Source of the DNA: an uncultured Candidatus Saccharibacteria bacterium
GTDB taxonomy: Bacteria > Patescibacteriota > Minisyncoccia > Phycocordibacterales > JACOZG01
Reading direction: 5' to 3'
NCBI GenBank assembly: GCA_964546425.1
Contig: CAZJJW010000001.1
Location: 1-51,251 of the forward strand
Length of the DNA: 51,251 bases
This document shows, piece after piece, positions 5,575 through 31,712 of this stretch. Position numbers and translations under genes: made by a program. Each line of letters begins with the position of its first letter. The first letter of the stretch is position 1. The notes below the pieces were generated by a model that did not search any database, was not told the origin of the DNA, and saw nothing but the letters and a program-made list of their open reading frames with translations.

Positions 5575-5575
5575 T

Positions 5576-15378: not shown

Positions 15379-16125
15379 GTGAAAAAGCGGATTTTAATAA
15401 TTCTGGCTTTTGGTGTACTTGTTTTGTCGGCCGGTTTAGTAATTTTGTGGTGGATCGGCGGCAAAAGCTTGGAAAATAACACCAGCGACGTGGAGGCCAA
15501 CCGCGCCCAGTTGGTCCAAGCCACCAATGAATTGCTCGGCAGCCGCCCCGGAACCAGTACGGAGATTCTCCGCCAAGCGATTGAGAAGAAGGGCGACTTG
15601 CCAGTTATTATTCCTGACCTTCGCCAAGTGAAACCGGCTGGCGTCTACTACGAACTAGTGGACTTGCGCTTGGCCGACATTACCGAGCCCTCGGCCTTAC
15701 GTGAGTACGGTCTCCAAGTCGCGGCGGCGATGTCGCTTTATGCCAAGGCCGAAATCCACAACGAAATGGCCGAGGCGCTGGCGGCTTATCAAGCGAATCA
15801 GCCGCTTCAATTAACCGGCGTGACAAAGATGAAGAACTTGTACCTGCAAATCATTGAGCGGCTCGCAATCCAGACCGTGCCACAGAGCGCTGGCCCGGCT
15901 CACTTGGCGCTCATCAACTCGCTCGTCGGTCTGGCCGAGATCGATATCCATATGGAACAGATCTTCGACGAGCCGGTGGTTGGTCTGCAAGCGATTCAGC
16001 TCTATCCGGAACGCTACGGCGCCTTGCTCAAAGCGATGCTGGGGATTAATAAATACTTCACCGATCAGGGAATTAAGTTCTCGGCTACCGAACACACCGA
16101 CCTGCCTTACATTTTTGCTCAATGA
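15379..16125 (+). CDS. Hypothetical N-terminally anchored protein (first gene of T4SS-like operon)
   Basis: GTG start. TM segment ILIILAFGVLVLSAGLVILWWIGG. The stop overlaps the next start (ATGA). Confidence 0.5.
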   Translation: MKKRILIILAFGVLVLSAGLVILWWIGGKSLENNTSDVEANRAQLVQATNELLGSRPGTSTEILRQAIEKKGDLPVIIPDLRQVKPAGVYYELVDLRLADITEPSALREYGLQVAAAMSLYAKAEIHNEMAEALAAYQANQPLQLTGVTKMKNLYLQIIERLAIQTVPQSAGPAHLALINSLVGLAEIDIHMEQIFDEPVVGLQAIQLYPERYGALLKAMLGINKYFTDQGIKFSATEHTDLPYIFAQ

Positions 16126-19076
16126 TTAAAAAGAATTTCAAAAAAATAATTTCTCTACTCGCCGTCGTTGGTTTGCTACTGCCGATTTTAATTCAAGCTC
16201 AAGTTGACCCGGAGGATCCGAATGGTTTACTGCCCGGACCAGCCGGTTATGTTCCCGGCCAGGGTCAGGACGAACTGGCCCAAAAACGCCAACAAGATAG
16301 CCAGCCCTGCCAGGCGGAGCAAAGCGGTGGCGGCGGACCGGGTGGTATCATTCCGCAGGCTAACAGCTTACAAAATATTTTTACCCAAGGTTTCACCAAG
16401 GGAATGGGTCAGATGTTTCAAGATCTGTTCGCCAACCGCCTGCCTAATATTGTGAAAGATATCTTGGAGCGTCGTCTCCAGCAAGAAATTCAGCAAAGGC
16501 TGGCTTATGATTTACCTAACTTATTAAACAGTCGCGTCCGAGGCGAGTTGGGGCGGGGCCAGACCCCAGACCAGATCCGCACCGCCTTGCCAACGTTCTT
16601 GCCGCAATGGCTGAATGAAATCATGCCGCAAATTGTCTCGGCGGCGCTCTCAAGCACTTTGCAGAATGGTCTGCGGGAAAACTTACCGCCAGAATTGGTG
16701 GTTGATCTTCAGAGCCAGGTCCCGGACATTATCAACAATAGTAACATTCCCGACCAAGTGGCGGGCATCGTCGCCACCACCACCGCCGTCTCCAGTGGCA
16801 GTGACCCGCTCAATAGCGGCCAGCGTCAAGATCTGACCGACGAAACCGTGAACGGGATCGTGAGGGAAGCCCAAAACGGCATCAATCACAGCGACGCCGT
16901 CACCGCTCTCTCTGAACAAATTATTCCGAACATTATTAGCCAACTCGCGCCCCAACTACTCCAGCAGTTGATGCCGGCCGTCAACAGCTCGCTTGGCAAC
17001 TTCGGCTCGAGTGGCGGCTACAACAATCTGGCCAATCTTAGTTTAGAAAATATTTTTAGCGGTGGGGCGGTGGGCGGTATCGGCGGTCAATTTATCGGCG
17101 ATCTGCAACTCAATCAAAATTTCTTAAACCCGCTCCAACAAAGTCTGACGGGTATCGCCGGCAACTGGGGCCACTCGGCGGCGCTGGGCGTTTTTGCCCT
17201 AAACCCGGCCAATGTCTTACCGCCACCGCCCATTCTTAACCAAGCGATGGGCAACATCGGCAGTGGCGCCGCCGGTCAAGTCGTTTCTAATTCAAGCGGT
17301 ATCGCCAGTGGCGCCGTCAGCAACGCCGGTCTTGGTGGCTTGAGCAATAGTTTGAAAACCGGGATTGCCGGGAGTTTGGCATCTGGTGTTGGTGGTCTGG
17401 TCTCGAGCCTGCCCGGCGGTCAATTCTTGGCCCCGATTGTTCAAGAATATGTTTCCCAATTTACTAGCACTTTGTTTGGCATTAGCGGCGGCACACCAAT
17501 CGGTTTAGCAACCGAAGGCGTGGTTCTGGCAAACGCTCCGACTATTACTCCTACTGGTGGGCCCGGCGCGGGAGGCATTGCCCAAACCGGTCTCGCCAAC
17601 ACCATCGCCACCGAACAGGGCTTCATGACCAGTAATCAGAACACTGGCCAAACCGCCGCCAACACCGACGCGATTAAACAAACCGAGCAAAGGATTCAAA
17701 ACCTGACCCAGCAAGGATGTAACGAGGAAAAAAAAGCGCGCGGGGAGATGGAGAGTTTGACTAATTTGTTTTATAAACTCATTCCGGCGGCGCTGAAAGC
17801 GCGGATTAACGCGACCGCCGAAATTTACAACAAAATTTCCGAATATTTCAACAAGGCCTACCAGGTTAGCCCCGGCGCTCGCGGCATTGCCAATACTGGA
17901 ACTCCAGGGGCCAACAATGACGGTGAGTCGGTTATTGCTCAACCAAATCAAGACATAAAAGATTCCAACAAAGAAGTTCTCAATAAACACGTCGCCCAGG
18001 GTCAACAAAATCCCAACCCCAACGTGAAAAAGGCGGCCCAAGACGCCGCCCAAGCCGCGGCTTCGGTGCCAGAGTTTGTGAAGCAACCACTCCTCACCGA
18101 CCAAAAACGAACCGCCCTCAAGGACCCGGAGCAACGGGGAAATATGTCACCGGAAGAATATTGGGACTCGATTGATAGGGCGGCGGAAGACACGCGAGCC
18201 AACGCCTACTTGTGGTTAACCGGCAACGTTGACAACGAGCAACGGCTGAAAAACGAGGTCGGCCTGGCCCAACTGGTGGCCGGCGGCGGCTTCCGCGACA
18301 TTCGAGAATGTACCGAGTTTATCAATCAACAGAATGCCGACCCAAACTTTGTTGGGCCGCCGACGTCGGCCGCGCAGTTCTGTAATCCCGACAAATGGAA
18401 AGTTAAAACTCCCGGCTCCGCCGTGCAGTCCACTTGGCTCAAATCTTTATTGGCCTTCTGGGACTTCCTAACCAGTTCTGATGTCCATCAAAGCGACGCC
18501 ATCAAGGCCGTGGCCGACCAGCCGGTAATTGCGATCCAAGATTTAAGTCAACCACCCCAGGGGGCGGGTAGTGGCCAGGGGCCGATCACTCCCGGCCAAG
18601 ATCCGTGCCCAACCACCGACCCCTGCCCCAAGTCTGGTTGGCAACCAAACCAAATCAACACCGCCGGCATCGAAAACGCCATAAGTAATAGCCTAAACAA
18701 TCAACTTGATAACCTCCTAAATGGCGGATTCGGCGGTGACGGCGATAGTTCGGGCGGCGGAAGCGGATTCAACCCGGGCGATCTTGCTGCGATAATTGGT
18801 AACGTCGCCGCCAGTCTTCCACCGCCCCCACCAATTCAGATTAGTTTTACCCAAACAAAAGTCGATAATATCCACAGCAAGCTGGGGTGGAACGCACCCG
18901 CAGCCACTTTCTGTAAATCAGGGAACAATTGGGTCGGGAGCGAGCCGGGGATTGCCGCGGAGACACCACTAGGTCCTAATGGAAACGTAACGGTTACCCA
19001 TCAAGCAAACGCCACTTACGAAATAAGCTGTTACAACTCGGCAAACGCGGACCAAAAACAACTACGACTACAGTGA
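16122..19076 (+). CDS. Large secreted low-complexity protein (984 aa, Gly/Gln/Asn/Ser/Pro-rich)
   Basis: Signal peptide MIKKNFKKIISLLAVVGLLLPILIQAQV. Long Gly-rich and Gln-rich tracts. Cys-containing C-terminal domain. No enzymatic motif seen. Confidence 0.6.
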   Translation: MIKKNFKKIISLLAVVGLLLPILIQAQVDPEDPNGLLPGPAGYVPGQGQDELAQKRQQDSQPCQAEQSGGGGPGGIIPQANSLQNIFTQGFTKGMGQMFQDLFANRLPNIVKDILERRLQQEIQQRLAYDLPNLLNSRVRGELGRGQTPDQIRTALPTFLPQWLNEIMPQIVSAALSSTLQNGLRENLPPELVVDLQSQVPDIINNSNIPDQVAGIVATTTAVSSGSDPLNSGQRQDLTDETVNGIVREAQNGINHSDAVTALSEQIIPNIISQLAPQLLQQLMPAVNSSLGNFGSSGGYNNLANLSLENIFSGGAVGGIGGQFIGDLQLNQNFLNPLQQSLTGIAGNWGHSAALGVFALNPANVLPPPPILNQAMGNIGSGAAGQVVSNSSGIASGAVSNAGLGGLSNSLKTGIAGSLASGVGGLVSSLPGGQFLAPIVQEYVSQFTSTLFGISGGTPIGLATEGVVLANAPTITPTGGPGAGGIAQTGLANTIATEQGFMTSNQNTGQTAANTDAIKQTEQRIQNLTQQGCNEEKKARGEMESLTNLFYKLIPAALKARINATAEIYNKISEYFNKAYQVSPGARGIANTGTPGANNDGESVIAQPNQDIKDSNKEVLNKHVAQGQQNPNPNVKKAAQDAAQAAASVPEFVKQPLLTDQKRTALKDPEQRGNMSPEEYWDSIDRAAEDTRANAYLWLTGNVDNEQRLKNEVGLAQLVAGGGFRDIRECTEFINQQNADPNFVGPPTSAAQFCNPDKWKVKTPGSAVQSTWLKSLLAFWDFLTSSDVHQSDAIKAVADQPVIAIQDLSQPPQGAGSGQGPITPGQDPCPTTDPCPKSGWQPNQINTAGIENAISNSLNNQLDNLLNGGFGGDGDSSGGGSGFNPGDLAAIIGNVAASLPPPPPIQISFTQTKVDNIHSKLGWNAPAATFCKSGNNWVGSEPGIAAETPLGPNGNVTVTHQANATYEISCYNSANADQKQLRLQ

Positions 19077-21346
19077 AAGAGCTCATATATAAAATTATAC
19101 TAGTCTTAATAGTTGGAGCGCTGTTTCTTCCTCACGTGGTAAAAGCGCAAGATGGTTTTGACGTTGACCCCAGTACAAAGCGGGCGGAGATGATTGATGG
19201 CCTGATCCGTGACGCTAACCTAAGGGGCGCACCGGAAGGAGAACTGGCTTGGTTGCATGTACTGCGGGCAGGATATTTGACGGGGGTCTACGACTCGAAC
19301 GCCCCCTTTCCACCTCCTGCCGAGGATCAAACTGGAATACCAGAACAAATTAAGATCGAGCAAGAAATTCTAAAGCGTTGGACCGCCGACTACCGAGGAG
19401 CTTCTGATTACAATGTGGTTTTGAATGCGATCGGCATCAGGGATAACAATCTAAACAAACTTCTGGATCCTAACAGTAACGATCAGTCCAACGCCGACAG
19501 GGCCATTAGAGAGCAATTTGCAAATCAAACAAAACTCGACCCGTCTACCATCGAGTGCGGGGGCTGGCTCCTGCCTGGCGGCTGCGACATTCTCAAGGCC
19601 GGAATTATCTTCGTCAATAAATTTGTCGAACCGACAGTCAGAAATCTTCTTTTAGACGGCGCCAACTGGATCTTCAACAAGGTTGTCAACGAGTCGGTAA
19701 GAAACTTTAGCGATTATGGCAAAGCTAACGGGGTCCAACTCGCTTGGGCGATGTCTCGCGATATCGTGAATGTCGCTTTGATTTTCTTCCTCCTCTATAT
19801 CGCCATCGGCACTATTCTGGGTTTCTTCGAGGGCAAGCGGCTCTTGGTCGCCATTGTCATCGCCGCGCTGTTGGTCAATTTCAGCGCCTTCTTCACTAAT
19901 ATTCTGATCGACGCCAGCAACATCGCCGCCAACCAGTTCTATAATCTAGCCGGCGGTGGGGCCACTACCGCCTCGGGGGCGCCAGACATTGGCACCCGCT
20001 TAGTATCAGCCACCGCCATTGATGCCCGCGACTTCGCTCTAGCAACGGCCGGCGCTGACCCCATCTCTAAACTCTCGGCCATCTTTGTCCAAGATGTTGG
20101 CCATATCATTCTCTATGTCATCACCGCCGTGGTCCTATTTGCGGCCGTGGCAATGTTTTTTGTCCGGATGATTACGCTCATTATCTTAATCATTATTTCT
20201 CCCTTTGCTTTCCTTTTCTTCACTTTGCCAAAAACTAAGGGCTACGCCGACCAATGGTTAAAAAGTCTCCTCAACCAAATACTTTTTGCCCCGATCTTCC
20301 TTTTCTTTTTTGCCGTCACGATAACGATTGCGAGTCAGAACGGCTTTCAACAAATGCAGCGGGGGAATGGCTCCGAAGGTTATATTGGATTCTTCTCGAT
20401 GCTGATTTACGTCATCTTGATTAATGGGATGATGGTCGGCGCGCTCCTGATTGCTAAACAGTTTGGCGCCGCCGGCGCCGGCGCGGCGATGAAAGGCCTC
20501 AAATCATATGGACTAGGTGCGGCTGGTGGGGCGACGGTTGGTTTGGCTGGTCGTTTGGGCCGAACTAGTCTTGGTCGGGGAGCCAGCGCCTGGGCTGACT
20601 CAAAGAAACTGGAGGCCAGAGCGGCGCAGGGTGGAGCTAAGGGTTGGTTTGCCAGGCAACAACTTAGAACCTTGCGTGGCGTTGCCGGTGCCAGTTTTGA
20701 CGCTCGAGCCACCAAAGCCGGGCAGGCGGCGGGCCTCGGCACCCTGGGCAAGGCCGGCGGCAAAGGTGGCTATGGAGCTCAGTTGAAAGAACAAGTGAAG
20801 GAGCGAGAAGAATTTACTAAGGGTTGGAGCGAGGAGAATAAAGCACAATACGCCGAGAACTTAGCTAAACGCCCAGGCATTCTCCGCGGCCGATTTGGCG
20901 GTCAAGCGCCACGGAAAAACCGAATAGCCGCTGAAAACATCAGCCAGGCAAAAGAACGAGCCGCGATCAACCTTCACAACGAGAGAATTGACCGAGAGAT
21001 CGAGCAACAAAAAGTGGTTTTGGACTTCGAAACCAAAAAACAGGAAACTTCTCGTTACAAAGCCGAGGTGCAGGTCGCCGAGCAGGCTCTGGCAACCGCG
21101 ACCGTTAGCGGCAACCCGGAGCTGGTGGCCAAATATACCAATGCCCTAACTGACGCCAGAACCAAAATGAACAACGCCAATCGAGAGTACGACGCGGTTC
21201 AAGCAGAGATTAAAAAGACAGAGGAGAAGAAGCGCACCTTCAAGAAAAGAGAGAAAAGTGTTGGGGAACAAGTCGCGGAGGCGCTGCAAAAAACTCAAGG
21301 AGGTGGTCGAGGAAGCCCGCCGACGCCACCGCCAGCCACACCATAA
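19073..21346 (+). CDS. Polytopic membrane protein, VirB6/TrbL-like, with Gly/Ala-rich and coiled-coil C-terminal tail
   Basis: GTG start overlapping the previous stop (GTGA). Signal/anchor, then at least 5 hydrophobic helices (e.g. VNVALIFFLLYIAIGTILGFF, LLVAIVIAALLVNFSAFFTNILI). Tail AGAGAAMKGLKSYGLGAAGG... then a charged coiled coil and PPTPPPATP. Confidence 0.5.
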   Translation: MKELIYKIILVLIVGALFLPHVVKAQDGFDVDPSTKRAEMIDGLIRDANLRGAPEGELAWLHVLRAGYLTGVYDSNAPFPPPAEDQTGIPEQIKIEQEILKRWTADYRGASDYNVVLNAIGIRDNNLNKLLDPNSNDQSNADRAIREQFANQTKLDPSTIECGGWLLPGGCDILKAGIIFVNKFVEPTVRNLLLDGANWIFNKVVNESVRNFSDYGKANGVQLAWAMSRDIVNVALIFFLLYIAIGTILGFFEGKRLLVAIVIAALLVNFSAFFTNILIDASNIAANQFYNLAGGGATTASGAPDIGTRLVSATAIDARDFALATAGADPISKLSAIFVQDVGHIILYVITAVVLFAAVAMFFVRMITLIILIIISPFAFLFFTLPKTKGYADQWLKSLLNQILFAPIFLFFFAVTITIASQNGFQQMQRGNGSEGYIGFFSMLIYVILINGMMVGALLIAKQFGAAGAGAAMKGLKSYGLGAAGGATVGLAGRLGRTSLGRGASAWADSKKLEARAAQGGAKGWFARQQLRTLRGVAGASFDARATKAGQAAGLGTLGKAGGKGGYGAQLKEQVKEREEFTKGWSEENKAQYAENLAKRPGILRGRFGGQAPRKNRIAAENISQAKERAAINLHNERIDREIEQQKVVLDFETKKQETSRYKAEVQVAEQALATATVSGNPELVAKYTNALTDARTKMNNANREYDAVQAEIKKTEEKKRTFKKREKSVGEQVAEALQKTQGGGRGSPPTPPPATP

Positions 21347-21355
21347 AATAAAACC

Positions 21356-22069
21356 ATGGACGATCAAAATCAACAAATAAGAGACCTCGTTGCCGACTTG
21401 CCGGCGGCACTCCAAACGGCGGCGCGCGACCGGTCGTGGGAAAACGATCTGCGCGCGATTGCCAACAAACACGGCTTCACACCGGAACAAGTTTCGATTT
21501 GGATTGACGAAACCTTATTGGTCTTAATGGGGGCGCTCACCCGGATTGATTACGCCAAAAATCTCGCCCTGACACTTGGTTTACCAAATGAGACTTGCGC
21601 CGCGCTCGCGCGTGAGGTGGAGGAAAAAATATTTCAGCCACTGGATAAACCATTACAATTACTCCAACAAAATAAAACCAGGGATGAACGCTTTGAGAAG
21701 TTGCCACCGAATATTCAGCAAGCGATCTCGTCGGCCGATAATGAGCGGGCGATTCAAGAAATTGGCAAGAAATATGCCTTACACATTGATCAGCTTGGAT
21801 TGCTCGATGATGAAGTGAATTTGGTGCTGCTTGGCGACACGCCGTCTAATCAATTTGTGGAAAAAATAAAGAACGTCTTGCGGATTGACGGGGCCCAGGC
21901 CCAAGCGGTCGGGCAAGAAGTCAGCGAGCGCATCTTCATGCCGCTCCGCGATTCGCTCCGAGCTTTAAGCGAGCCTCCAACGTCAAGCATCGTCGAACAA
22001 AAGTTGGGTGGCACATTTAGTCTCCCGGTCGAAAAGAAAATTGATCCTTACCACGAACCGATAGATTAA
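21356..22069 (+). CDS. Hypothetical protein with internal two-fold repeat
   Basis: Two similar modules: ...IANKHGFTPEQVSIWIDETLLVLMG...AREVEEKIFQPL and ...IGKKYALHIDQLGLLDDEVNLVLLG...GQEVSERIFMPL. Confidence 0.5.
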   Translation: MDDQNQQIRDLVADLPAALQTAARDRSWENDLRAIANKHGFTPEQVSIWIDETLLVLMGALTRIDYAKNLALTLGLPNETCAALAREVEEKIFQPLDKPLQLLQQNKTRDERFEKLPPNIQQAISSADNERAIQEIGKKYALHIDQLGLLDDEVNLVLLGDTPSNQFVEKIKNVLRIDGAQAQAVGQEVSERIFMPLRDSLRALSEPPTSSIVEQKLGGTFSLPVEKKIDPYHEPID

Positions 22070-22070
22070 C

Positions 22071-22490
22071 ATGGCAAATTTCCAGGTGCCACAATTTATT
22101 GAGATCGAGGATCGGATTTTCGGACCGCTGACCTTCAAGCAGTTCGTCTACTTGGCCGGCGGCGGGGGCGCGGCCTTCATCGAGTGGGTTTATATTCCCG
22201 TCCACTTCATCGCCATAATGTTCATCGCGCCAACCGTCGGCTTGGCTTTGGCGCTGGCCTTCTACAAAATTAATGACCGACCCTTTATTTTGATGATGGA
22301 GTCGGCCTTCCACTATCTGCTCGACCACAAATTGTACATTTGGAAAAAGGTCGAGCCCAAACTTCGCCAAGACGCCGCGGGGCAGATTACCAAGATCACG
22401 CAAGAGCGGGGAATTGCGATTCCTAAATTATCGGAGAGCAAATTGAAAGATTTGTCCTGGAGCTTGGATGTCAGGGAGAAGATCAAATAA
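22071..22490 (+). CDS. PrgI-family (VirB3-like) T4SS membrane protein
   Basis: N-terminus MANFQVPQFIEIEDRIFGPLTFKQFVYLAGGGGAAF followed by two TM helices. This matches the PrgI-family layout normally found upstream of VirB4. Confidence 0.6.
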   Translation: MANFQVPQFIEIEDRIFGPLTFKQFVYLAGGGGAAFIEWVYIPVHFIAIMFIAPTVGLALALAFYKINDRPFILMMESAFHYLLDHKLYIWKKVEPKLRQDAAGQITKITQERGIAIPKLSESKLKDLSWSLDVREKIK

Positions 22491-22501
22491 ATTTGATCTT
22501 C

Positions 22502-22975
22502 AAATCCGAAATTCGAAGTTCTAAATCCTAAATAATATCAAATGGTCGAAACCCAAAGTCCAAAACGATACGATCTTGAAGATAGAACGCTCAAGTTTGC
22601 TGGCGCTGTGAGAATGTTCGTGCAAAAACTGCCAAAAGGTATCAGCAATTTTGAGGACATCAAACAACTGGTTCGATCGTCTGGCTCGGTTGGTGCTAAC
22701 TATATCGAGGCCAACGAAGCCCTAAGCAAAAAAGATTTCCTCATGAGAATCAAGATTTGTCGCAAAGAAGCCAAAGAAACCGGCTTCTGGCTCAAACTGC
22801 TCCAGGTTGGCGAAACGGGGCCGGTTGATAAGGAAAGATCCAAATTATTAAACGAAGCGGGCGAGTTAATGAAAATATTTGGAGCGATATTAGCTAAATC
22901 CGAAACAAATTAAAATGTTTAGGGCATTAAAAAATTGGAATTTGGGATTTGTTTGGGATTTCGATATTCGGATTT
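22502..22975 (+). mobile_element. IVS-type cassette: four-helix-bundle gene enclosed by imperfect inverted-repeat arms
   Basis: The left arm 22502-22541 (AAATCCGAA ATTCGAAG TTCTAAATCCTAAAT...) pairs in blocks with the right arm 22939-22975 (9 bp, 7 bp and 11 bp helices read by eye). Confidence 0.55.
22542..22913 (+). CDS. Four-helix-bundle protein (23S rRNA intervening-sequence protein family)
   Basis: RYDLEDRTLKFAGAVRMF..., VRSSGSVGANYIEANEALSKKDFLMRIKICRKEAKETGFWLKLL is the family signature. Confidence 0.75.
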   Translation: MVETQSPKRYDLEDRTLKFAGAVRMFVQKLPKGISNFEDIKQLVRSSGSVGANYIEANEALSKKDFLMRIKICRKEAKETGFWLKLLQVGETGPVDKERSKLLNEAGELMKIFGAILAKSETN

Positions 22976-23002
22976 CGGGCTTAAGTGGTCTAGAATTAAT
23001 AT

Positions 23003-23647
23003 ATGACTAAAACTGCCAGCCAAACCACTCAAGAATTCGTCCCGATTCAGGCCATCCGCGATGGCGTGGTGGTGCTTAAGACTGGCGGCTTGCGCTTGGT
23101 TCTCATTGTCTCCTCGATTAACTTCGCCCTCAAATCTGAGGATGAGCAGACGGCAATTTTGCTCCAATTCCAAAACTTTCTTAATTCGCTCGACTTCCAC
23201 GTCCAACTTTTTGTCGAATCGCGCCGACTCGATATCCGGCCCTATCTGCGAACGCTTGAAGAACGGTTGGTGGCTCAAACTAACGACTTAATGAAGGTCC
23301 AAACCAGAGAATACATCGAGTTCATTAAAAAGTTCACCGAGACAACCGACATCATGTCGAAAAGCTTCTTTGTGGTTATCCCCTACGCGCCGGCGCTGAT
23401 CCAGGTAGGCAAAAGGGGCGGCCTGCTGTCTCGGGTCATGGGGGGCAAGCGCACCGCCGCCGAGGTTAAAACCGATGATCAAGCCGAGTTTGAGGAACAA
23501 CGGACGCAACTCGAACAGCGGGGGAGCGTGATTGAGCAAGGATTCGCGCGGCTTGGCTTGCGGGTGTTGCAACTCGGGACCGAGGAATTGGTCGAACTTT
23601 ATTTCAAGATTTTTAATCCCGGCGAGACTGACATCCCGAGCATTTAA
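23003..23647 (+). CDS. T4SS-associated protein resembling a stand-alone VirB4/TrbE N-terminal domain
   Basis: FVPIQAIRDGVVVLKTGGLRLVLIVSSINFALKSEDEQTAILLQFQNFLNSLDFHVQLFVESRR resembles the N-domain pattern of VirB4-type ATPases. There is no Walker motif. Confidence 0.4.
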   Translation: MTKTASQTTQEFVPIQAIRDGVVVLKTGGLRLVLIVSSINFALKSEDEQTAILLQFQNFLNSLDFHVQLFVESRRLDIRPYLRTLEERLVAQTNDLMKVQTREYIEFIKKFTETTDIMSKSFFVVIPYAPALIQVGKRGGLLSRVMGGKRTAAEVKTDDQAEFEEQRTQLEQRGSVIEQGFARLGLRVLQLGTEELVELYFKIFNPGETDIPSI

Positions 23648-23970
23648 ATCCGAAGCACTAAATCCGAAATCCTAAATAATATCAAATGGTCGAAACCCAA
23701 AGTCCAAAACGATACGATCTTGAAGATAGAACGCTCAAGTTTGCTGGCGCTGTGAGAATGTTCGTGCAAAAACTGCCAAAAGGTATCAGCAATATCGAGG
23801 CCAACGAAGCCCTAAGCAAAAAAGATTTCCTCAATCAGTAAATCTTAAATTCGAAGCACCAAATCCTAAACAATACCAAATGCCCAAAATTACAAACTCA
23901 AAACCGTTTTGGATTTCAAACATTAAGATTTTGAATTTGTTTGGGGTTTCGATATTAGGATTTCGGGCTT
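23648..23970 (+). repeat. Decayed second copy of the IVS-type cassette (arms plus gene remnant plus nested extra left arm)
   Basis: Left-arm CCGAAATCCTAA at 23664-23675 pairs perfectly with TTAGGATTTCGG at 23955-23966. 23842-23885 carries another left-arm-like segment ending in ATG. Confidence 0.55.
23686..23841 (+). pseudogene. Truncated four-helix-bundle gene (51 codons)
   Basis: Identical to 22542-22649, then a 54-nt in-frame deletion, then identical to 22704-22743, then a divergent ATCAGTAA stop. Confidence 0.75.
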
Positions 23971-24003
23971 ACATCTCTCGGGTTTCGAGTTTATAATATA
24001 ATT

Positions 24004-25815
24004 ATGTGGCCCTTTAAGAAAAAAGAGAAAGCGGACGCGGCGGTGGCGCCCGTTTTCCCCCAAGATATTTATCAAATGGGCGTGCTGGAACTGCGCGATG
24101 TGATTGCGCCGTCGGCGCTTAAAATCACCCCGCGAATTTTAAACTTGGGCGACAAGGTGGCGCGGACTTTCTATGTCATCTCTTATCCGCGGATTCTCGC
24201 CGGTGATTGGCTCTCGCCGGTGATCAATCTCGACAAAGTTTTCGACATCTCGATTCTGATTCACCCGATTGACAGCTCGGTCGCCTTGCGCCAACTGGAG
24301 AAAAAGGTGGCCGAAGTTCAGAGTCAGATCAGCTTGAAAGAAGAAAAGGGCTTGGTCCGCGATCCGATTCTCGACACCGCTTATGAAGATATCGAGACGT
24401 TGCGCGACTCACTCCAGCAAGCGCGTGAAAAAATTTTTGATGTCGGTCTCTATATCACGATTTACGCCGACAACGAGGATGAATTGAACAAAACCGAGAT
24501 TGAGATCAAGGGCATTCTCGATGCCAAGTTGGTCTACTTGAAGCCGGCGCTCTTCCAACAAGCCGAGGGCTTCAAGAGTGTCTTGCCGGTGGCCGAAGAT
24601 TTGCTTAATGTCAATTACAAACTCAATTCCTCGCCGCTCTCGAGCGTTTTCCCTTTCGTCTCGTTCGATCTGACTTCCAACAAGGGGATTCTCTACGGCA
24701 TCAACCGCCACAATTCCAGTTTGGTGCTGTTTGATCGTTTCTCGCTCGAGAACTACAACTCGGTCGTCTTCGCCAAATCCGGCTCCGGCAAATCCTACGC
24801 CGCCAAACTGGAAATCTTGCGCAGTTTGATGTTTGACACCGATGTGCTGGTGATCGATCCGGAGCGCGAATACGAATTCTTGTCCGAAGCGGTCGGCGGG
24901 CGCTACTTCAACATCTCGCTGACCTCCGAACACCATATCAATCCGTTTGATCTACCGTTCCCGCGCGAGGATGAGTCGCCGGCGGATGTCTTGCGCTCGA
25001 ATATCATCAACTTGGTCGGCTTGTTTCGCTTGATGTTGGGCGGCTTGACGCCGGAAGAAGACGCGATTATTGACCGCGCCATTACCGAAACTTACGCGCT
25101 TAAAGATATTACCGCCGATAGTAACTTCGGGGGTAAACCGCCGCCACTCCTCTCGGATTTGGAGTTGGTGTTGGTCGGGATGGAGGGCGGCGAGCAGTTG
25201 GCGCAACGTTTGCTCAAATACACGCGCGGCACTTGGGCCGGTTTCTTAAACAAGCCGACCAATGTTGATATCAACAAGAAATTCATCGTCTTTTCGGTCC
25301 GCGATATGGAAGATGAACTGAAGCCGGTGGCGATGTATATCGTGATGCACAATATTTGGAACGCCATCCGCCGCAATTTGAAAAAGCGCTTGCTCGTCAT
25401 TGACGAGGCCTGGTGGATGATGAAATCCAAAGACACCGCCTCGTTCTTGTTTTCGCTGGTTAAAAGGGGAAGAAAATACTATTTGGGCGTGGCCACGATT
25501 ACTCAAGACGTGGGCGACTTCTTAAAGTCAGAATACGGTTTGCCGATTATTACTAATTCCTCGATTCAATTATTACTCAAACAATCGCCGGCTTCGATTG
25601 AGATGGTCCAGCAAACTTTCCAACTGACCGACGAGGAAAAATACTTGCTTTTGGAATCGGCGGTCGGCGAGGGCATCTTCTTCGCCGGTTTGAAGCACGT
25701 GGCGGTGAAAATCATCGCCTCTTACACCGAAGATCAAATTATCACCTCCGATCCGTCGCAGATTCTGGCGATTAAGAAGGCGAAGGAGGAATTAGAAGCC
25801 GTTGGGCCGCAATAA
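24004..25815 (+). CDS. VirB4/TraC/PrgJ-type T4SS ATPase
   Basis: N-domain ...IAPSALKITPRILNLGDKVARTFYVISYPRILAGDWLSPVI.... Walker A FAKSGSGKSY, Walker B LLVIDEAWWMM. 603 aa. Confidence 0.85.
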   Translation: MWPFKKKEKADAAVAPVFPQDIYQMGVLELRDVIAPSALKITPRILNLGDKVARTFYVISYPRILAGDWLSPVINLDKVFDISILIHPIDSSVALRQLEKKVAEVQSQISLKEEKGLVRDPILDTAYEDIETLRDSLQQAREKIFDVGLYITIYADNEDELNKTEIEIKGILDAKLVYLKPALFQQAEGFKSVLPVAEDLLNVNYKLNSSPLSSVFPFVSFDLTSNKGILYGINRHNSSLVLFDRFSLENYNSVVFAKSGSGKSYAAKLEILRSLMFDTDVLVIDPEREYEFLSEAVGGRYFNISLTSEHHINPFDLPFPREDESPADVLRSNIINLVGLFRLMLGGLTPEEDAIIDRAITETYALKDITADSNFGGKPPPLLSDLELVLVGMEGGEQLAQRLLKYTRGTWAGFLNKPTNVDINKKFIVFSVRDMEDELKPVAMYIVMHNIWNAIRRNLKKRLLVIDEAWWMMKSKDTASFLFSLVKRGRKYYLGVATITQDVGDFLKSEYGLPIITNSSIQLLLKQSPASIEMVQQTFQLTDEEKYLLLESAVGEGIFFAGLKHVAVKIIASYTEDQIITSDPSQILAIKKAKEELEAVGPQ

Positions 25816-25817
25816 TT

Positions 25818-26195
25818 ATGGCCGAAGCAAAGAAAGCGAAAATGGGCTGGTTGGGTGGCGGGGTGGCCATTGGGTTGGCCGCGATGGTTGACCTGGTCAA
25901 ACTCCTGCTCTACTTCATCCTGATCGGCTTTGTGGTAAACTGGATTATCAGTTTTATGTTTTTGCTGGCCTTCGCGATTTGGCTGACGCTCAAACACGCG
26001 ATGACCCTACCACGGGGGATTACCCTGCTCGGAGCCGTGGTCTACAGCTTAGTCCCGTTTGCCATGACCGGCACGGTGGCGGGGATGGTCGCGAGGATTA
26101 TTGCCGGAGATAAGTTAGCGGTGGCGATACCGGGCGGCAAAGCCGCCCCGAAACCGTCCCGGCTGCGGTTCGGTCATGTTTCTTACGAAGGATAG
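25818..26195 (+). CDS. Small polytopic membrane protein (T4SS operon)
   Basis: 3-4 hydrophobic helices. Starts 2 nt after the VirB4 stop. Confidence 0.5.
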   Translation: MAEAKKAKMGWLGGGVAIGLAAMVDLVKLLLYFILIGFVVNWIISFMFLLAFAIWLTLKHAMTLPRGITLLGAVVYSLVPFAMTGTVAGMVARIIAGDKLAVAIPGGKAAPKPSRLRFGHVSYEG

Positions 26196-26212
26196 TGAGC
26201 AAACTATCGATT

Positions 26213-26437
26213 TTATAACAACCTCCTAAACTCATTCTCCGACAAACCGGCTTGTTTAATAATTGATTTGTATAACCAACGTGGTAGATCGCCCGGATGC
26301 ATTGGGATGGTGAGGTGGCGTTTGGTGGTAGGATGATAAAAAGCTTTGTGGCTACCGCTCTGCTCGTCTTCCAGAAAGCCCGCCCGCAAGATGGCTTTGG
26401 CCATCTGGCGAGCGGTTAAGTTTGGCAAACGAGTCAT
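26213..26437 (-). CDS. hicA: HicA-family mRNA interferase toxin
   Basis: RQMAKAILRAGFLEDEQSGSHKAFYHP...LTIPMHPGDLPRWLYKSIIKQAGLS is the HicA/YcfA pattern. Confidence 0.75.
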   Translation of the reverse strand: MTRLPNLTARQMAKAILRAGFLEDEQSGSHKAFYHPTTKRHLTIPMHPGDLPRWLYKSIIKQAGLSENEFRRLL

Positions 26438-26685
26438 GCCGGCTGGGGAAGGGGAATTTGGATAATAACCACGCTGGGCAAAGAAGATTCCACCGGAACC
26501 GTTTCGCCATGCTTGAGCATTGAGCGCAAATGAAGCTGAATCGCTTCATGGGCATTGGTGATAGCCTCCTCGGTGGTCCGACCACGAGAGAAACAGCCCG
26601 GCAAAACCGGAACCTCGACCCAGTAACCGGACTCCTCGCCCGCTTCGTTGGGATGGATAATCACACTATATGTACTGGTACGCAT
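26434..26685 (-). CDS. hicB: HicB-family antitoxin (UPF0150 core only)
   Basis: YSVIIHPNEAGEESGYWVEVPVLPGCFSRGRTTEEAITNAHEAIQLHL. Overlaps hicA by 4 nt. Confidence 0.75.
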   Translation of the reverse strand: MRTSTYSVIIHPNEAGEESGYWVEVPVLPGCFSRGRTTEEAITNAHEAIQLHLRSMLKHGETVPVESSLPSVVIIQIPLPQPA

Positions 26686-26723
26686 AGCCTACAGATTACC
26701 ATAGTTGTGGTAAAATAAAAGGC

Positions 26724-27467
26724 ATGAAATTGGCGACGTTGATAATTGCCCTGACCCTAGCTGGCACCGCCTTGGCCCAAACGCCGACCGGTACGGTTGA
26801 TCTCTTGTGGCAAGCTAATACTTACACGCCGCCGTGGTACCGCGGCCACAGTTTGCCTACCGCCGGTAGCGTGGTCAAAGTCGTCGCCTTGCCGCATATT
26901 AAGGTTGGCGGAGGCCTGCCTGCGCAGGCAGGCGAAGCCTCGGCGCGAGATCTCATTTTCCGGTGGCAGAAGGATGGCCGCGATGTGCCAAGTGTCTCCG
27001 GCGCCGGGCAAGACACACTCTCTTACATTGTTGACAGCGGTGGCAATACGATTGCCGTGGCCGTGCTTAATCGGACCGGAACGCTCTTGGCCGCCCGGCG
27101 CCTAACGCTCCTTGCCAGCGAGCCGAAAGTGGTGCTTTATGAAGAGGACCCGCTGGCCGGCACGGCTTATTGGCAAGCGGTGGCGACCACCACCTTGCTC
27201 GCGGAACCTGAACTGACGGTGCGCGCCGAGCCGTACTTCTTCACTCGGGCGGCAGTCGAAGCCGGGCGCTTAAATTACGAGTGGAAATTAAACGGCAAAA
27301 AGATTATCACCGACGCCGCCAACACTCAATTACTCACCTTCGCCGCGCCGGCCGAAGGCGGGGGGGAGAATACCATTGAGCTAGCCGTCAGTAATTTAGC
27401 CAACGCGCTGCAGAGCGCCAAAACCAAATTGCTACTTAAATTTAATCAGCAAAATTTTAGTTTTTGA
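26724..27467 (+). CDS. Secreted hypothetical protein (T4SS operon)
   Basis: Signal peptide MKLATLIIALTLAGTALAQ. Beta-rich composition. Carries a REP-A-derived insert. Confidence 0.5.
   Translation: MKLATLIIALTLAGTALAQTPTGTVDLLWQANTYTPPWYRGHSLPTAGSVVKVVALPHIKVGGGLPAQAGEASARDLIFRWQKDGRDVPSVSGAGQDTLSYIVDSGGNTIAVAVLNRTGTLLAARRLTLLASEPKVVLYEEDPLAGTAYWQAVATTTLLAEPELTVRAEPYFFTRAAVEAGRLNYEWKLNGKKIITDAANTQLLTFAAPAEGGGENTIELAVSNLANALQSAKTKLLLKFNQQNFSF
26908..26944. repeat. REP family A variant split by a nested 18-nt palindromic insert
   Basis: GCGGAGGC + CTGCCTGCGCAGGCAGGC + GAA + GCCTCGGC. Positions 26914-26933 form a perfect 20-nt palindrome, GCCTGCCTGC/GCAGGCAGGC. Confidence 0.6.
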
Positions 27468-27468
27468 G

Positions 27469-27882
27469 ATGAAAATATACCTTGCTTTAATCTTGTTTTC
27501 TCTATCATGGTTTACGCCGTGGGTATTAGCGGCCGACTGTACCAACTCCGGCGGCAATACGGTGTGTGTCTTAGAGCCGTCCATTCCAGAAACTCCACAA
27601 GTTGAAGACTTTGGTTCGTATCTGGGTAAACTCTTCAACAAAATAATCACCGCGGCGGCCATTTTGGCGGTACTGGCCATTGCCTGGTTTGGCTTCCAAT
27701 ATATGTTCAGCAACATTCCGGGCTTGAAATTGGAAAGTAAAAATAGAATCTGGGGCGCCGTCGGGGGTTTGATTCTAATCTTAGCCGCTTACATAATTCT
27801 AAAAGAGATCAACCCCCAGATTACCGAGAATATCGGGGGCTTGTTTAAAGATATTATCAAACCACTCCAAACACAGCCATGA
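27469..27882 (+). CDS. T4SS pilin-like protein (VirB2/TrbC-like: signal peptide plus two TM helices)
   Basis: Signal peptide MKIYLALILFSLSWFTPWVLA. Helices ITAAAILAVLAIAWFGFQYMF and IWGAVGGLILILAAYIIL, separated by a short loop. Confidence 0.55.
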   Translation: MKIYLALILFSLSWFTPWVLAADCTNSGGNTVCVLEPSIPETPQVEDFGSYLGKLFNKIITAAAILAVLAIAWFGFQYMFSNIPGLKLESKNRIWGAVGGLILILAAYIILKEINPQITENIGGLFKDIIKPLQTQP

Positions 27883-29129
27883 ACAAATTTATTATAATTC
27901 TAGTGGTGGTTGGATTCGTCATTATTGGCGGAGTGGCTTGGTGGTTTATTTTACCAACGCGCCAAGCACCCTTGCCCGCTCCAACCGAGACCGCCGAGCC
28001 GCTTTTTCCGACTGGCGGGGCGGTCAGCCCGCCGGCCAGTGAAGCGACCGAGCCAGCGCCGCCGGCGATTCCGGGTCAAAGTTTACCAGTCAAACAAATT
28101 TCGAAAAAGGCCGTCGCCGGGATGTTTGTCGCCGGCACCACCGCCACTAGTTCGGTGATTTACCTCGAGCGAGCGACCGGCCATGTCTACGTTTTGCCCC
28201 ACGACGGGAGCGAGGCCGCGCGCCTGTCCCAAACCACGATTCCCAAAATTGTCACTGTGGTGGGCGGAAAAACCGCTTCCAGTATCAAAGTTTTAGCTCA
28301 ATATTTGAAAGATGGTCGCCGCCAGAACTTCTTGGCTAATTTGCGGGTGGCCTCTACCACACCGGGTGAGAGCTTCGCCACCAATGCCAGCGAGAGTCCG
28401 GTCGGCGAGCTCTCCGGTTCACTGCTTGACGCCAATATTGAACAAGTAGTTTTCTCTCCGGTTCAAGACAAAATTTTCCACTTAGCCAACTCGAGTAGCG
28501 GCGCGGTTGGCACGATTTTTGATCCCATCACCAAAAGTCAAATTATCATTTTCTCTTCGCCGTTAAATGAGTGGCTTATTGGTTGGCCGGCCACCAGTAC
28601 GATTGCTCTCCTTGCCAAACCATCGGCTGAAACGGTCGGCTTCCTTTACTTGCTCGATGTGAAAACCAAAAAGTCGCGATTGGTTGTGTCGGGCGTTAAT
28701 GGGTTAACCACCCTCGTTAATAAAGCGGGGGACAAAATTTTGCTTAGCGGCATCGCGAATGGGCAATTAGCTTTTGGTTGGTATGATCTCGGACGACAAG
28801 CGTTCTCCGCCCTGCCGGTGAAAACTTTGACTGACAAGTGTGTCTGGGGCCGCGACAGTGCCGCGGTTTATTGCGGCGTGCCGACCACGCTTCCAGCCGG
28901 ACCATACCCGGATCACTGGTACTCGGGCGAAACCAGTTTCACCGACAATCTTTGGAAAATAAATATCCTGACCGGTCAGGCGCAAATCATTTTTAACCCC
29001 GAACTTAGCAATTTGGGCGAAGCGCTCGACGCTTATCAACTTTTGCTGACCAACGACGAAACAACGTTGTATTTTATCAACAAATACGATTCTACTTTGT
29101 GGTCGCTTGATTTAAGGCCGGTGTTTTAA
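27879..29129 (+). CDS. N-anchored hypothetical protein with Pro/Ala/Thr linker and beta-rich domain
   Basis: ATGA overlap with the pilin gene. TM segment FIIILVVVGFVIIGGVAWWFIL. Linker PAPTETAEPLFPTGGAVSPPASEATEPAPPAIPG. Confidence 0.5.
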   Translation: MNKFIIILVVVGFVIIGGVAWWFILPTRQAPLPAPTETAEPLFPTGGAVSPPASEATEPAPPAIPGQSLPVKQISKKAVAGMFVAGTTATSSVIYLERATGHVYVLPHDGSEAARLSQTTIPKIVTVVGGKTASSIKVLAQYLKDGRRQNFLANLRVASTTPGESFATNASESPVGELSGSLLDANIEQVVFSPVQDKIFHLANSSSGAVGTIFDPITKSQIIIFSSPLNEWLIGWPATSTIALLAKPSAETVGFLYLLDVKTKKSRLVVSGVNGLTTLVNKAGDKILLSGIANGQLAFGWYDLGRQAFSALPVKTLTDKCVWGRDSAAVYCGVPTTLPAGPYPDHWYSGETSFTDNLWKINILTGQAQIIFNPELSNLGEALDAYQLLLTNDETTLYFINKYDSTLWSLDLRPVF

Positions 29130-29835
29130 ACCGGCGGAAAAGGGATTCGGCCACAATCGTAAAGAGATTGCTGGTAATCCAATAGACGGCCACCGCCGAG
29201 GGCAAGCTAAGGGAGAAAAAAACCACTAAGACCGGCAAGACATAACGGACTTGGATATTCATGCTCCGGGCTAAATCTTCCTGGAACGAGCGCTCGGTTT
29301 TGGCCGGATTGGGGCTGGGCGGCGGCGGCATCATCAGCTGGGCTTGGATCATTTGAGTCAACCCGGCCAAGAGCGCCAGAATGTAACTTTTGGCCGTCAG
29401 ATCAAAAATCCCAAAGAAAAGCATGTCCACCGCCGGCGGCGCCACCACGAAAGAATAAAGGGCGGTTGGGTCAAAATTAAACCCACTCTGGAAAACGGCG
29501 TAAAGCGCGATAATGATCGGCAATTGAATAAAGATCGTCAGACCGCCCAGGGGATTGACCCGGTGCTCGCGGTACAGATTCATCAATTGTCGCGCTTGCT
29601 CGGCCTTATCGTCTTGGTGCTTGGCTTTGAGCTCTTTAATGAGCGGCTCAAGCGCCTTCATCTTGGCTTGAGTGCGAAGCATCTGCCACTGAAGCGGCAA
29701 GAGTAAAAATTTAACCGCCACCGTAAGCGCGACAATCGCTAAACCAATATCATGCCCGGGCAAAAGCGCGCTTAGAAAGACTAGCGCGTTGTAAAGGGGA
29801 AGAAAAAAGATCTGATGGAAAAATACTTTCACCAT
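29092..29835 (-). CDS. yidC: YidC/Oxa1-family membrane protein insertase
   Basis: ...GLAIVALTVAVKFLLLPL..., MKALEPLIKELKAKH, NPLGG..IFIQLPIIIALY. Confidence 0.85.
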   Translation of the reverse strand: MVKVFFHQIFFLPLYNALVFLSALLPGHDIGLAIVALTVAVKFLLLPLQWQMLRTQAKMKALEPLIKELKAKHQDDKAEQARQLMNLYREHRVNPLGGLTIFIQLPIIIALYAVFQSGFNFDPTALYSFVVAPPAVDMLFFGIFDLTAKSYILALLAGLTQMIQAQLMMPPPPSPNPAKTERSFQEDLARSMNIQVRYVLPVLVVFFSLSLPSAVAVYWITSNLFTIVAESLFRRFKTPALNQATTK

Positions 29836-30107: not shown

Positions 30108-30109
30108 TG

Positions 30110-30244: not shown

Positions 30245-30269
30245 AAAACCATCCTAACACGGCTGGCGG

Positions 30270-31655: not shown

Positions 31656-31712
31656 AATTAAAGTATAGCAAGTATCAACCCACCTGAATACTCGTGTTGG
31701 GGATAGCAAAAA

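Follow-up and report, generated by a model that had tools for sequence, protein, structure and literature searches.

Organization of the operon

A 51,251-nucleotide stretch of DNA from an uncultured Candidatus Saccharibacteria bacterium (assembly GCA_964546425.1, contig CAZJJW010000001.1; Patescibacteriota, Minisyncoccia in the GTDB taxonomy), hereafter called the window, carries a compact array of genes (15379–29129, + strand) related to type IV secretion systems (T4SSs). An initial annotation, made from the sequence alone, had described this array as a packed operon of thirteen co-directional genes. The list of open reading frames (ORFs) of the window bears out the packing on a single strand, with 4-nt start/stop overlaps at 16122/16125, 19073/19076 and 27879/27882 and gaps of 1–10 nt between virB6 and g4, g4 and prgI, virB4 and g8, and g9 and the pilin gene. 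The number of genes had to be revised: eleven plus-strand genes are conserved, the twelfth plus-strand ORF belongs to an inserted cassette, and a hicAB toxin-antitoxin pair lies on the minus strand. This division into 11 conserved genes and three passengers is drawn from a close relative in which prgI, trsD and virB4 are uninterrupted and no toxin-antitoxin pair is present.

Five of the eleven conserved products can be named (VirB6/TrbL, PrgI/VirB3, TrsD, VirB4 and a VirB2-like pilin), and the other six, called here g1, g2, g4, g8, g9 and g11, are envelope or cytoplasmic proteins that belong to no family. All 11 core ORFs are full length relative to their orthologues. A TATAAT-like box and an AAAGGAG ribosome-binding site are found upstream of g1, and g11, the last gene of the operon, converges on yidC. 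The character proposed earlier for each listed product from g1 to g11 was recovered by a hydropathy scan for transmembrane (TM) segments and signal peptides and by family profiles; profile searches for PrgI, pilin, VirB6/TrbL and VirB4 detected all of these families, the pilin being recognized through its orthologues.

The motor genes trsD and virB4

The ATPase core of the system is a VirB4 protein of 603 aa (24004–25815, +). It matches the NCBIfam equivalog model conju_CD1110 over positions 185–732 (E = 1.8e-109, 367 bits for a cut-off of 325), the Pfam families P-loop_TraG, AAA_10 and DUF87, and the solved C-terminal domain of VirB4 (PDB 4AG5, E = 7.5e-42). Both nucleotide-binding motifs are intact and aligned with those of the solved structure, the Walker A motif reading AKSGSGKS (AKPGAGKS in 4AG5) and the Walker B motif LLVIDEAW (VLVVDEAW in 4AG5). 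A match of the same protein to the CedB DNA-import model (E = 6.8e-9, 34.9 bits, cut-off 700) is too weak to use.

The preceding gene (23003–23647, +) encodes a TrsD-like protein of 214 aa, which corresponds to a separately encoded N-terminal piece of VirB4. This protein matches the NCBIfam TrsD model (E = 2.5e-7) and covers positions 2–109 of the CD1110-type VirB4 model (2.9e-7) and positions 99–233 of the Mbov_0397 VirB4 model (1e-9), whereas the VirB4 ORF covers positions 293–893 of this second full-length model. As the two ORFs match consecutive stretches of full-length VirB4 models, they together tile one VirB4. By tblastn, TrsD was detected in 81 of 82 related loci (52–73% identity, median 57%), and its orthologue alignment (A6) has 42 invariant columns; in the relative L001, the orthologue matches the TraC-like family PF26593 and ends 1 nt before virB4. 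A comparison of the TrsD orthologue profile with PDB sequences gave nothing significant. The 'stand-alone VirB4-N-like protein' of the initial annotation is therefore indeed the product of a separate gene, but it is no oddity, being the conserved TrsD partner of a VirB4 that is naturally encoded by two genes.

A search for VirB4 homologues at E ≤ 1e-10 returned at least 8,000 proteins. Among the matches listed, the 119 proteins other than that of the window are 79–91% identical to it, have a size of 589–625 aa, all come from metagenome assemblies and bear the names of Patescibacteria, Paceibacterota, Nomura-, Vogel- or Pacebacteria, or just 'bacterium'. The window's VirB4 would thus group by similarity with Patescibacteria proteins, the names among these listed matches being either patescibacterial or unspecific. 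Since all 119 of these homologues have the size of the VirB4 ORF alone and trsD stands as a gene of its own, abutting virB4, in 81 of the 82 loci, the idea that a full-length VirB4 (214 + 603 aa) was split by the insertion of a cassette was rejected; the cassette described below merely widened a pre-existing boundary between trsD and virB4.

Other membrane and cytoplasmic components

The third gene of the operon (19073–21346, +) encodes a VirB6/TrbL-like polytopic channel subunit of 757 aa, which matches PF04610 (TrbL) over residues 255–454 (E = 1.9e-10, 41.3 bits, cut-off 25.9). According to the TM scan, a signal sequence or anchor is followed by an ectodomain of some 200 aa and then by five TM segments, and the protein ends in a hydrophilic tail of some 290 aa. 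This protein was detected in 68 of the 82 loci, with 24–37% identity (median 30%). The small PrgI/VirB3-like membrane protein (139 aa; 22071–22490, +) matches PF12666 (E = 1.2e-8, 35.7 bits, cut-off 27) and is better conserved, being found in 78 of the 82 loci with 42–66% identity (median 51%). In the T4SSs of monoderms, PrgI/VirB3 is the membrane anchor of VirB4.

Two other components were characterized from alignments of positional orthologues. The g4 product (237 aa; 21356–22069, +) is a cytoplasmic protein devoid of TM segment in which a domain of some 100 aa occurs twice; its C-terminus carries a DPY(R/H)EP motif, in which D230, P231, Y232 and E234 are near-invariant (alignment A4, 45 positional orthologues). 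It has no Pfam match, and its orthologue profile has no significant match among PDB sequences. The g8 product (125 aa; 25818–26195, +) is a polytopic membrane protein with three or four TM segments, whose position directly 3' of virB4 is conserved, as are the motifs FD and E.IP.L..LP.WT (alignment A5, 27 positional orthologues). No Pfam or NCBIfam family was found for g8, its profile gave no match among PDB sequences, and a Pfam scan of each orthologue returned stray matches only. A match of g8 to the TIGR00261 TraB model (E = 2.9e-4, 19.9 bits, cut-off 178) was discarded as too weak.

The pilin and the exposed proteins

The penultimate gene (27469–27882, +) encodes a VirB2-like T4SS pilin of 137 aa with a signal peptide and two TM helices. 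Its matches to PF04956 (TrbC; E = 1.3e-5, 25.7 bits, cut-off 27.9) and PF18895 (T4SS_pilin; 4.2e-4, 20.8 bits, cut-off 26.6) lie just under the curated thresholds, and its best NCBIfam match is the Mbov_0395 pilin-like model (7.2e-7). The assignment comes from the relatives: 12 of 13 short pilin orthologues match PF18895, with a best E value of 5e-10. The median identity of the pilin among relatives is 37%, and its orthologue profile gave nothing significant against PDB sequences.

The pilin gene is framed by two genes for which structure prediction, proposed earlier for the components without family, was carried out with AlphaFold2 (AF2). Directly upstream, g9 (26724–27467, +) encodes a secreted protein of 247 aa whose AF2 model (predicted local distance difference test, pLDDT, 78.8; predicted template modelling score, pTM, 0.72; 7-sequence alignment) shows two tandem β-sandwich domains of the immunoglobulin (Ig) or fibronectin type III (FN3) kind. 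Among the Foldseek matches of this model are Sidekick, SiiE and RbmA, which have tandem Ig/FN3 domains. The protein was detected in 79 of the 82 loci (25–43% identity, median 30%), and its relatives carry a third, N-terminal, Ig-like domain. Downstream, g11 (27879–29129, +) encodes an anchored protein of 416 aa, in which a disordered proline-rich linker connects an N-terminal TM helix to an all-β extracellular domain modelled as a β-propeller (pLDDT 86.5, pTM 0.81; 38-sequence alignment). Its Foldseek matches are generic β-propellers (WDR5, DCAF1, TolB, S9 peptidase propeller) at about 10% identity; it was detected in 70 of the 82 loci (median identity 32%), and seven homologues have an added peptidoglycan-binding domain (PF01471). 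As the structural matches of g11 and g9 are only to generic folds at about 10–15% identity, no specific function can be transferred to either protein. The NTF2 fold of VirB8-like proteins was not found in g9 or g11, the two proteins modelled. What is new here is that, according to these models, a putative anchored β-propeller and a putative secreted tandem Ig-like protein flank the pilin gene.

The first two genes of the operon also encode exposed proteins. The g1 product (248 aa; 15379–16125, +) is bitopic, anchored by a TM segment at residues 5–23, and has a conserved C-terminal ectodomain that is probably helical and in which Y110, P168, H175 and N180 are near-invariant (alignment A3, 45 positional orthologues). 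It has no Pfam, NCBIfam or PDB match, including by comparison of its profile with PDB sequences. Eleven of the 45 orthologues contain bacterial thrombospondin type 3 (TSP3) repeats, and the Pfam scan of each member found no other match among them; the median identity among relatives is 26%. The g2 product (984 aa; 16122–19076, +) is a secreted low-complexity protein with a signal-like N-terminus and a composition rich in G, Q, N, P and S (11% G, 9% Q, 8.5% N, 7% P), which has no Pfam or NCBIfam family match and is presumed to be an extracellular fibre or adhesin. By tblastn it was found in only 7 of the 82 loci (21–35% identity, median 24%); its positional orthologues are mostly of about 270–1350 aa, which makes it the fastest-evolving and most length-variable member of the operon.

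Passenger genes inside the operon

Three insertions are found within the operon. The first (22499–22983, +), located between prgI and trsD, is a cassette whose ORF (22542–22913) encodes a four-helix-bundle protein of the 23S rRNA intervening sequence (IVS) protein family (PF05635, E = 5e-12; TIGR02436, 69 bits, cut-off 24). An imperfect inverted repeat of some 30 nt (22506–22535 / 22949–22978) surrounds the ORF, and the RNA fold has a z-score of -3.8. The second (23643–23971, +), between trsD and virB4, is a degenerate copy with an internally deleted ORF of 51 aa (23686–23841). The two copies share the direct repeats D1 (166 nt, 92%), D6 (42 nt, 100%), D2 and D3, together with the same flanking motifs. 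The gap between trsD and virB4 is 356 nt in the window versus an estimated median of 36 nt in relatives. The third insertion (26213–26685, −) is the hicA (26213–26437; PF07927, E = 7e-17) and hicB (26434–26685; HicB-like PF15919, 1.3e-15) pair, which fills the 528-nt gap between g8 and g9 (26196–26723) and occurs in none of the 82 related loci. A plus-strand ORF of 62 aa antisense to hicB is probably spurious.

The four-helix-bundle cassette is not a T4SS component, and it is absent from most related loci. A hidden Markov model built from the protein of the window and seven proteins from inserts in related loci, searched against 83 sources, retrieved 19 cassette genes in 17 of them (L004, L005, L009, L011–L014, L022, L024, L042, L045, L049, L051, L058, L059, L062 and the window). 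Eighteen of the 19 lie in the spacers between g4 and prgI, prgI and trsD, or trsD and virB4, so that the three spacers around prgI and trsD are a hot spot for IVS-like cassettes. The copies of relatives are about 36–38% identical to that of the window, and an inverted repeat exceeding shuffled sequences by more than 3 standard deviations surrounds 14 of the 19 genes (median z 6.1). This layout, an ORF within a stem, recalls the intervening sequences of 23S rRNA. In one locus, the cassette is replaced by an ORF of 135 aa, which we take to resemble a GxxExxY-type protein. No publication on four-helix-bundle cassettes in operons of this kind came up in a literature search. Both the cassettes and HicAB are regarded as selfish passengers, none of which damages a core ORF.

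The best sigma-70-like match of the operon region (CTTACA, 18 nt, TATAAT; 10 of 12 positions) lies at 23968–23997, 7 nt before the virB4 start and at the right end of the degenerate cassette. The cassette remnant may therefore give virB4 its own promoter, which is a lead and not evidence; scans of the operon region for promoters and terminators gave counts that do not exceed the shuffled expectation.

Chromosomal setting and inheritance

The operon is preceded by genes for PcrA/UvrD, a Y1 transposase-like protein, KsgA (14125–14904) and a DUF192 protein. It is followed by yidC (29092–29835, −), rnpA (29835–30293, −), an EcoRI-like restriction-modification pair, dnaA (31794–33149) and dnaN (33257–34366). 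The housekeeping neighbours dnaA, dnaN and rnpA place it at the replication origin, and GC content shows no island-like step at its borders.

The same arrangement recurs in relatives. A genome scan retrieved 80 VirB4 loci (74–89% identity), all of them metagenome-derived. The genomes are labelled Paceibacterota or named as Nomura-, Vogel-, Kaiser-, Taylor- or Campbellbacteria; many of the 80 bear only generic labels: Patescibacteria, 'bacterium' or, for one bulk set of metagenome-assembled genomes, 'uncultured Candidatus Saccharibacteria'. As established by tblastn and positional ORF maps of 82 loci, the order ksgA, (DUF192 gene), g1, g2, virB6, g4, prgI, trsD, virB4, g8, g9, pilin gene, g11, yidC, rnpA, dnaA, dnaN holds wherever the contig reaches, and the whole stretch from ksgA to g11 is present in 44 of them, which are all genomes of the Paceibacteria type. 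The synteny check called for by the initial annotation thus shows a gene order that recurs in dozens of Paceibacteria genomes, with the operon at the same chromosomal site.

Conservation differs widely between the products. VirB4 is 74–89% identical in all 82 loci (median 77%), and the exposed products have 18–48% identity among related loci. VirB4 exceeds DnaA in conservation by 12–28 percentage points in each of the 59 loci that hold both (among L003–L082), a comparison somewhat biased by the choice of the loci through VirB4 similarity. Its identity is correlated with that of DnaA (rho 0.39, p 0.003) and that of YidC (rho 0.45). The fast evolution of the neighbouring genes rules out a recent horizontal sweep of the operon, and the data agree with vertical inheritance of an operon whose cytoplasmic motor is very strongly constrained and whose exposed parts change rapidly. 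The contrast in constraint between VirB4 and the extracellular proteins is unusually sharp for one operon.

These data bear on whether the operon might be an ordinary integrative conjugative element (ICE), or the decaying remnant of one in which the insertions reflect degeneration. The best NCBIfam models for VirB4 are those of CD1110 and of a Mycoplasma ICE, i.e. of monoderm conjugative elements, and selfish genes (Y1 transposases, toxin-antitoxin pairs, the EcoRI-like restriction-modification pair) lie nearby. The content of the region was examined by a Pfam scan of the ORFs of the window (those of at least 110 aa not mostly overlapped by a better-supported gene), to which were added the genes called past its right end on the 59,445-bp parent contig JACOZI010000003.1 (assembly GCA_016181425.1). 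Neither these scanned window ORFs nor the genes called further along the contig include a member of a relaxase, VirD4/FtsK-type or VirB11 family, in agreement with the initial annotation, which had seen no VirD4, relaxase or VirB11 within the operon. No element integrase was found in the window or in the scanned part of the contig either; the sole tyrosine recombinase of the window (2556–3497, −) is of the Xer type (XerA model, 254 bits, cut-off 220) and is encoded 12 kb away. The operon is thus not flanked by a relaxase/VirD4 pair and an integrase, and its Walker motifs are intact. Together with the housekeeping flanks shared by dozens of genomes from several Paceibacteria lineages, the excess of VirB4 over DnaA conservation in 59/59 loci, a divergence that tracks DnaA and YidC, the integrity of the core ORFs and the smooth GC profile, this leads us to reject the ICE, which is now extremely improbable.

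Relationships with known systems

The closest description is the survey of 3,035 Patescibacteria genomes by Quinonero-Coronel et al. (2025, Microb Genom, PMC12102498), in which the VirB4 proteins of Patescibacteria form a clade nested within class FATA of the mating pair formation (MPF) systems. Genes for TrsD, PrgI/VirB3, VirB6 and VirB2-like pilins are widely found around virB4, there are hardly any relaxases, and the T4SS loci of Paceibacteria are neighboured by dnaA, dnaN, rnpA, ksgA and rpmH (PMC12102498). The window shares with this system VirB4, TrsD, PrgI/VirB3, VirB6, a VirB2-like pilin near virB4, the lack of relaxase, the lack of coupling protein near virB4 and the dnaA/dnaN/rnpA/ksgA neighbourhood. 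As all testable defining features are present, placement in the clade being by similarity, the window carries a member of this known system; nothing essential differs, and the window adds insertions specific to its lineage, namely a cassette, a cassette remnant and HicAB. The type of system is therefore already described, and the window holds one more, slightly disrupted member, although g1, g2, g4, g8, g9 and g11 are not among the components named in the survey. The earlier statement that the apparatus lacks a coupling protein is correct for the locus but does not extend to the genomes of the group: VirD4-like genes, located away from virB4, were reported in 2,918 of the 3,035 genomes (PMC12102498).

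No cell-wall hydrolase was found by Pfam and NCBIfam scans between 15379 and 29129. The hydrolase that had been noticed 4.5 kb upstream is present (9953–10897, −) and consists of two LysM domains and an M23 peptidase domain (PF01551, E = 1.1e-28; PF01476, 5.5e-22); its best NCBIfam matches, all under cut-off, are DipM, ActS and NlpD-type cell-wall enzymes. M23 and LysM domains are found among the VirB1-like proteins encoded near virB4 in Paceibacteria (PMC12102498). The enzyme is possibly a stand-in for VirB1 or possibly a plain cell-division hydrolase, and its membership in the system is uncertain.

Experimental data come from Southlakia epibionticum ML1. Transposon sequencing (Tn-seq) of this organism showed that its T4SS cluster is indispensable when it grows as an epibiont (Wang et al. 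2023, Cell, PMC10633639). This cluster resembles Gram-positive conjugative systems, has pilin genes and encodes no recognizable coupling protein or relaxase; it spans SEML1_0005–0019 and encodes a VirB4 of about 610 aa, PrgI, VirB6-like proteins, an NTF2-like protein, a lysozyme and six pilins (PMC10633639). The gene 5' of its virB4 encodes a TrsD homologue (PMC12102498). Thus, both systems have a separate TrsD and a VirB4 of about 610 aa, PrgI, VirB6-like proteins, VirB2-like pilins and neither coupling protein nor relaxase in the cluster. Another common feature is an exported Ig-like protein, which in Southlakia is encoded at the end of the cluster. By the same source, Southlakia has an array of six pilins where the window has a single one, its cluster encodes a phage-tail-lysozyme/glucosaminidase and an NTF2-like (VirB8-like) protein, neither of which was found in the operon of the window, and the families of the g11 β-propeller, g1 and g4 are not noted in the portion of the locus annotation examined. 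A literature search turned up no experiments on the mechanism more recent than this 2023 Tn-seq study; a 2025 review restates points of the survey and speculates on a pilus conduit for uptake from the host.

The relationship with the MPF-FATA systems of monoderms (pGO1 Trs, pCF10 Prg/Pcf, Clostridioides conjugative transposons of the CD1110 type, the Mycoplasma ICE with Mbov_0395/0397) appears in a VirB4 that scores above the CD1110 cut-off, in the TrsD-type split N-terminal piece, in PrgI and VirB6, in the lack of an outer-membrane core complex and in the pilin, whose best NCBIfam match is the pilin-like protein of the Mycoplasma ICE. Unlike these systems, the cluster of the window has no relaxase, coupling protein, VirB1-type hydrolase or recognizable VirB8-like protein, and it is not carried by a mobile element but is vertically inherited at the replication origin. 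A functional analogy with the Helicobacter ComB and archaeal Ced systems may also be proposed, by inference only, as they share with the window a minimal set of the VirB2/3/4/6 type, the absence of relaxase, coupling protein and VirB11, and, in the reading preferred below, a non-conjugative character. However, ComB has VirB7–10 homologues suited to a double membrane, and CedB is a distinct ATPase.

Proposed role of the system

Taken as a whole, the operon most likely encodes, with a probability of about 0.8, a chromosomal and vertically inherited T4SS of the Patescibacteria type, in its Paceibacteria arrangement and of MPF-FATA descent, which serves non-conjugative exchange with a host cell. 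The initial annotation had likewise read it as a minimal non-conjugative T4SS-like apparatus in a reduced, possibly epibiotic organism, and families, Walker motifs, synteny and literature support this reading. Its functioning can be viewed as follows. The TrsD/VirB4 motor, PrgI/VirB3, VirB6 and g8 would form a platform at the cytoplasmic membrane. Hexamers of TrsD/VirB4 docked on PrgI and VirB6, with g8, would power the assembly of a pilus-like conduit of the VirB2-like protein through the cell wall. The parts that span the wall and touch the host would be the g11, g9, g1 and g2 proteins, which would stand in for VirB8, VirB1 and adhesins. The machine would then exchange macromolecules with the host cell, by uptake of host material or by protein export, and would not conjugate DNA.

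Several points weigh against this reading. The roles proposed for g1, g2, g4, g8, g9 and g11 are drawn only from position, topology and fold, no sequence feature of the window reveals function, substrate or direction of transport, and the pilin of the window itself falls slightly short of the curated thresholds of Pfam and NCBIfam. The cassette remnant and HicAB interrupt the usual translational coupling of trsD with virB4 and of g8 with g9, so that expression of the downstream genes has to be assumed. To our knowledge, none of the T4SSs of Patescibacteria has been observed to form a pilus. A VirD4-like coupling protein may be encoded elsewhere in the genome, as in most Patescibacteria (PMC12102498), and a DNA substrate is hence possible. 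The experimental data come only from another class, Saccharimonadia, and from a locus of different make-up, which includes arrays of pilin genes and encodes a lysozyme as well as an NTF2-like protein (PMC10633639).

Within the exchange with a host, the substrate and the direction may be specified in two ways, import of host material and protein export having roughly equal weight. According to one proposal, the operon would be a dedicated machine for the import of DNA (or of a source of nucleotides), comparable to ComB or Ced, which would be a specific version of the preferred reading and does not contradict it. It has the same minimal VirB2/VirB3/VirB4/VirB6 set as uptake systems in a locus without relaxase, coupling protein and VirB11; import of DNA or other macromolecules is favoured by the authors of the survey, who cite literature according to which Patescibacteria lack de novo nucleotide synthesis (PMC12102498). 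The partial match of VirB4 to CedB points in the same direction, but it is confined to the P-loop region and lies far under the cut-off, ComB-type VirB7–10 components are absent, and no DNA-binding or nuclease component is recognizable in the locus. In addition, protein export is equally possible according to Wang et al. (PMC10633639), and the direction of transport cannot be read from the sequence. Import of DNA in particular is thus a tentative proposal, with the odds against it.

According to the other proposal, the operon would encode an exporter of effectors or other proteins, or a device for attachment by a pilus whose assembly alone would require VirB4. The pilin gene is flanked by genes for adhesin-like folds (tandem Ig, β-propeller), a giant low-complexity secreted protein is present, and the cluster lacks coupling protein and relaxase; the low identity of the exposed parts (18–48%) compared with that of the motor (74–89%) is expected of host-contacting surfaces, and protein export or an alternative role was suggested by Wang et al. 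(PMC10633639). However, no candidate effector or secretion signal was identified, Ptl and Brucella VirB, which export proteins without coupling protein, depend on periplasmic loading and on core complexes of the outer membrane, which this system lacks, and adhesion is already provided in these bacteria by type IV pili (PilB in the window, PilM/PilN on the contig). Export or attachment is therefore possible but doubtful, to the same degree as DNA import.

Two further ideas concern the parts specific to this arrangement. First, g11, g9, the TSP3/helical anchor g1 and the giant g2 would constitute an extracellular module specific to Paceibacteria that supplies the missing VirB8, VirB1 and adhesin functions and would form, with the single VirB2-like pilin, a wall-spanning conduit to the host. 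Second, the four-helix-bundle cassettes would not be inserted at random and could act as RNase III-type processing sites or promoter carriers that uncouple or tune the expression of the motor genes. Taken jointly, these two ideas are improbable.

Few machines of the ultra-small Patescibacteria have been shown to be indispensable to their epibiotic lifestyle, and the T4SS is one of them. The finding that the motor proteins (VirB4, TrsD and PrgI) are more constrained than DnaA and that the exposed parts evolve fast could guide work in cultivable relatives; likewise, the fold assignments for two conserved genes so far unnamed (g9 and g11) and the hot spot of IVS-like cassettes could guide experiments. 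The contribution of the window itself consists of minor additions to an arrangement already described for Paceibacteria.

Other genes of the window

Two genes for Y1 transposase-like proteins (IS200-like or REP-associated, 219–234 aa, under the NCBIfam cut-off) are found at 3543–4247 (+) and 13450–14109 (+), the latter between pcrA and ksgA, just 5' of the operon. On the other side of the operon, the space separating rnpA from dnaA holds an inserted gene for an EcoRI-like endonuclease (30341–31033, −) and a fragment of an N6-adenine methylase gene (30984–31736, −); two relatives, L001 and L002, have rnpA (and rpmH) immediately next to dnaA. A segment with a strong AT skew (5062–6781, +) contains two overlapping ORFs without family match. 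One encodes a coiled-coil-like protein of 170 aa rich in E and K, and the other a protein of 423 aa with an N-terminal half rich in A, E and R, one TM segment and a C-terminal globular domain.

A PilB/GspE-type ATPase is encoded at 44402–46090 (−), and PilM and PilN are encoded on the contig past the window (L083, 17717–19839), which indicates that this genome has genes for a type IV pilus in addition to, and distinct from, the T4SS. Finally, several toxin-antitoxin genes besides hicAB are scattered over the region: a pair encoding a HepT-like RNase and an MNT/Pol-beta nucleotidyltransferase (8678–9500, −) beside the LysM-M23 hydrolase gene, a further HicA-like ORF (37154–37597), a PIN gene (47532–47954) and, past the window, another hicA gene (L083, 14206–14430) and, just beyond its end, BrnT/BrnA. 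With HepT/MNT, HicAB, PIN and BrnT/BrnA, the density of toxin-antitoxin genes is high for so small a segment.

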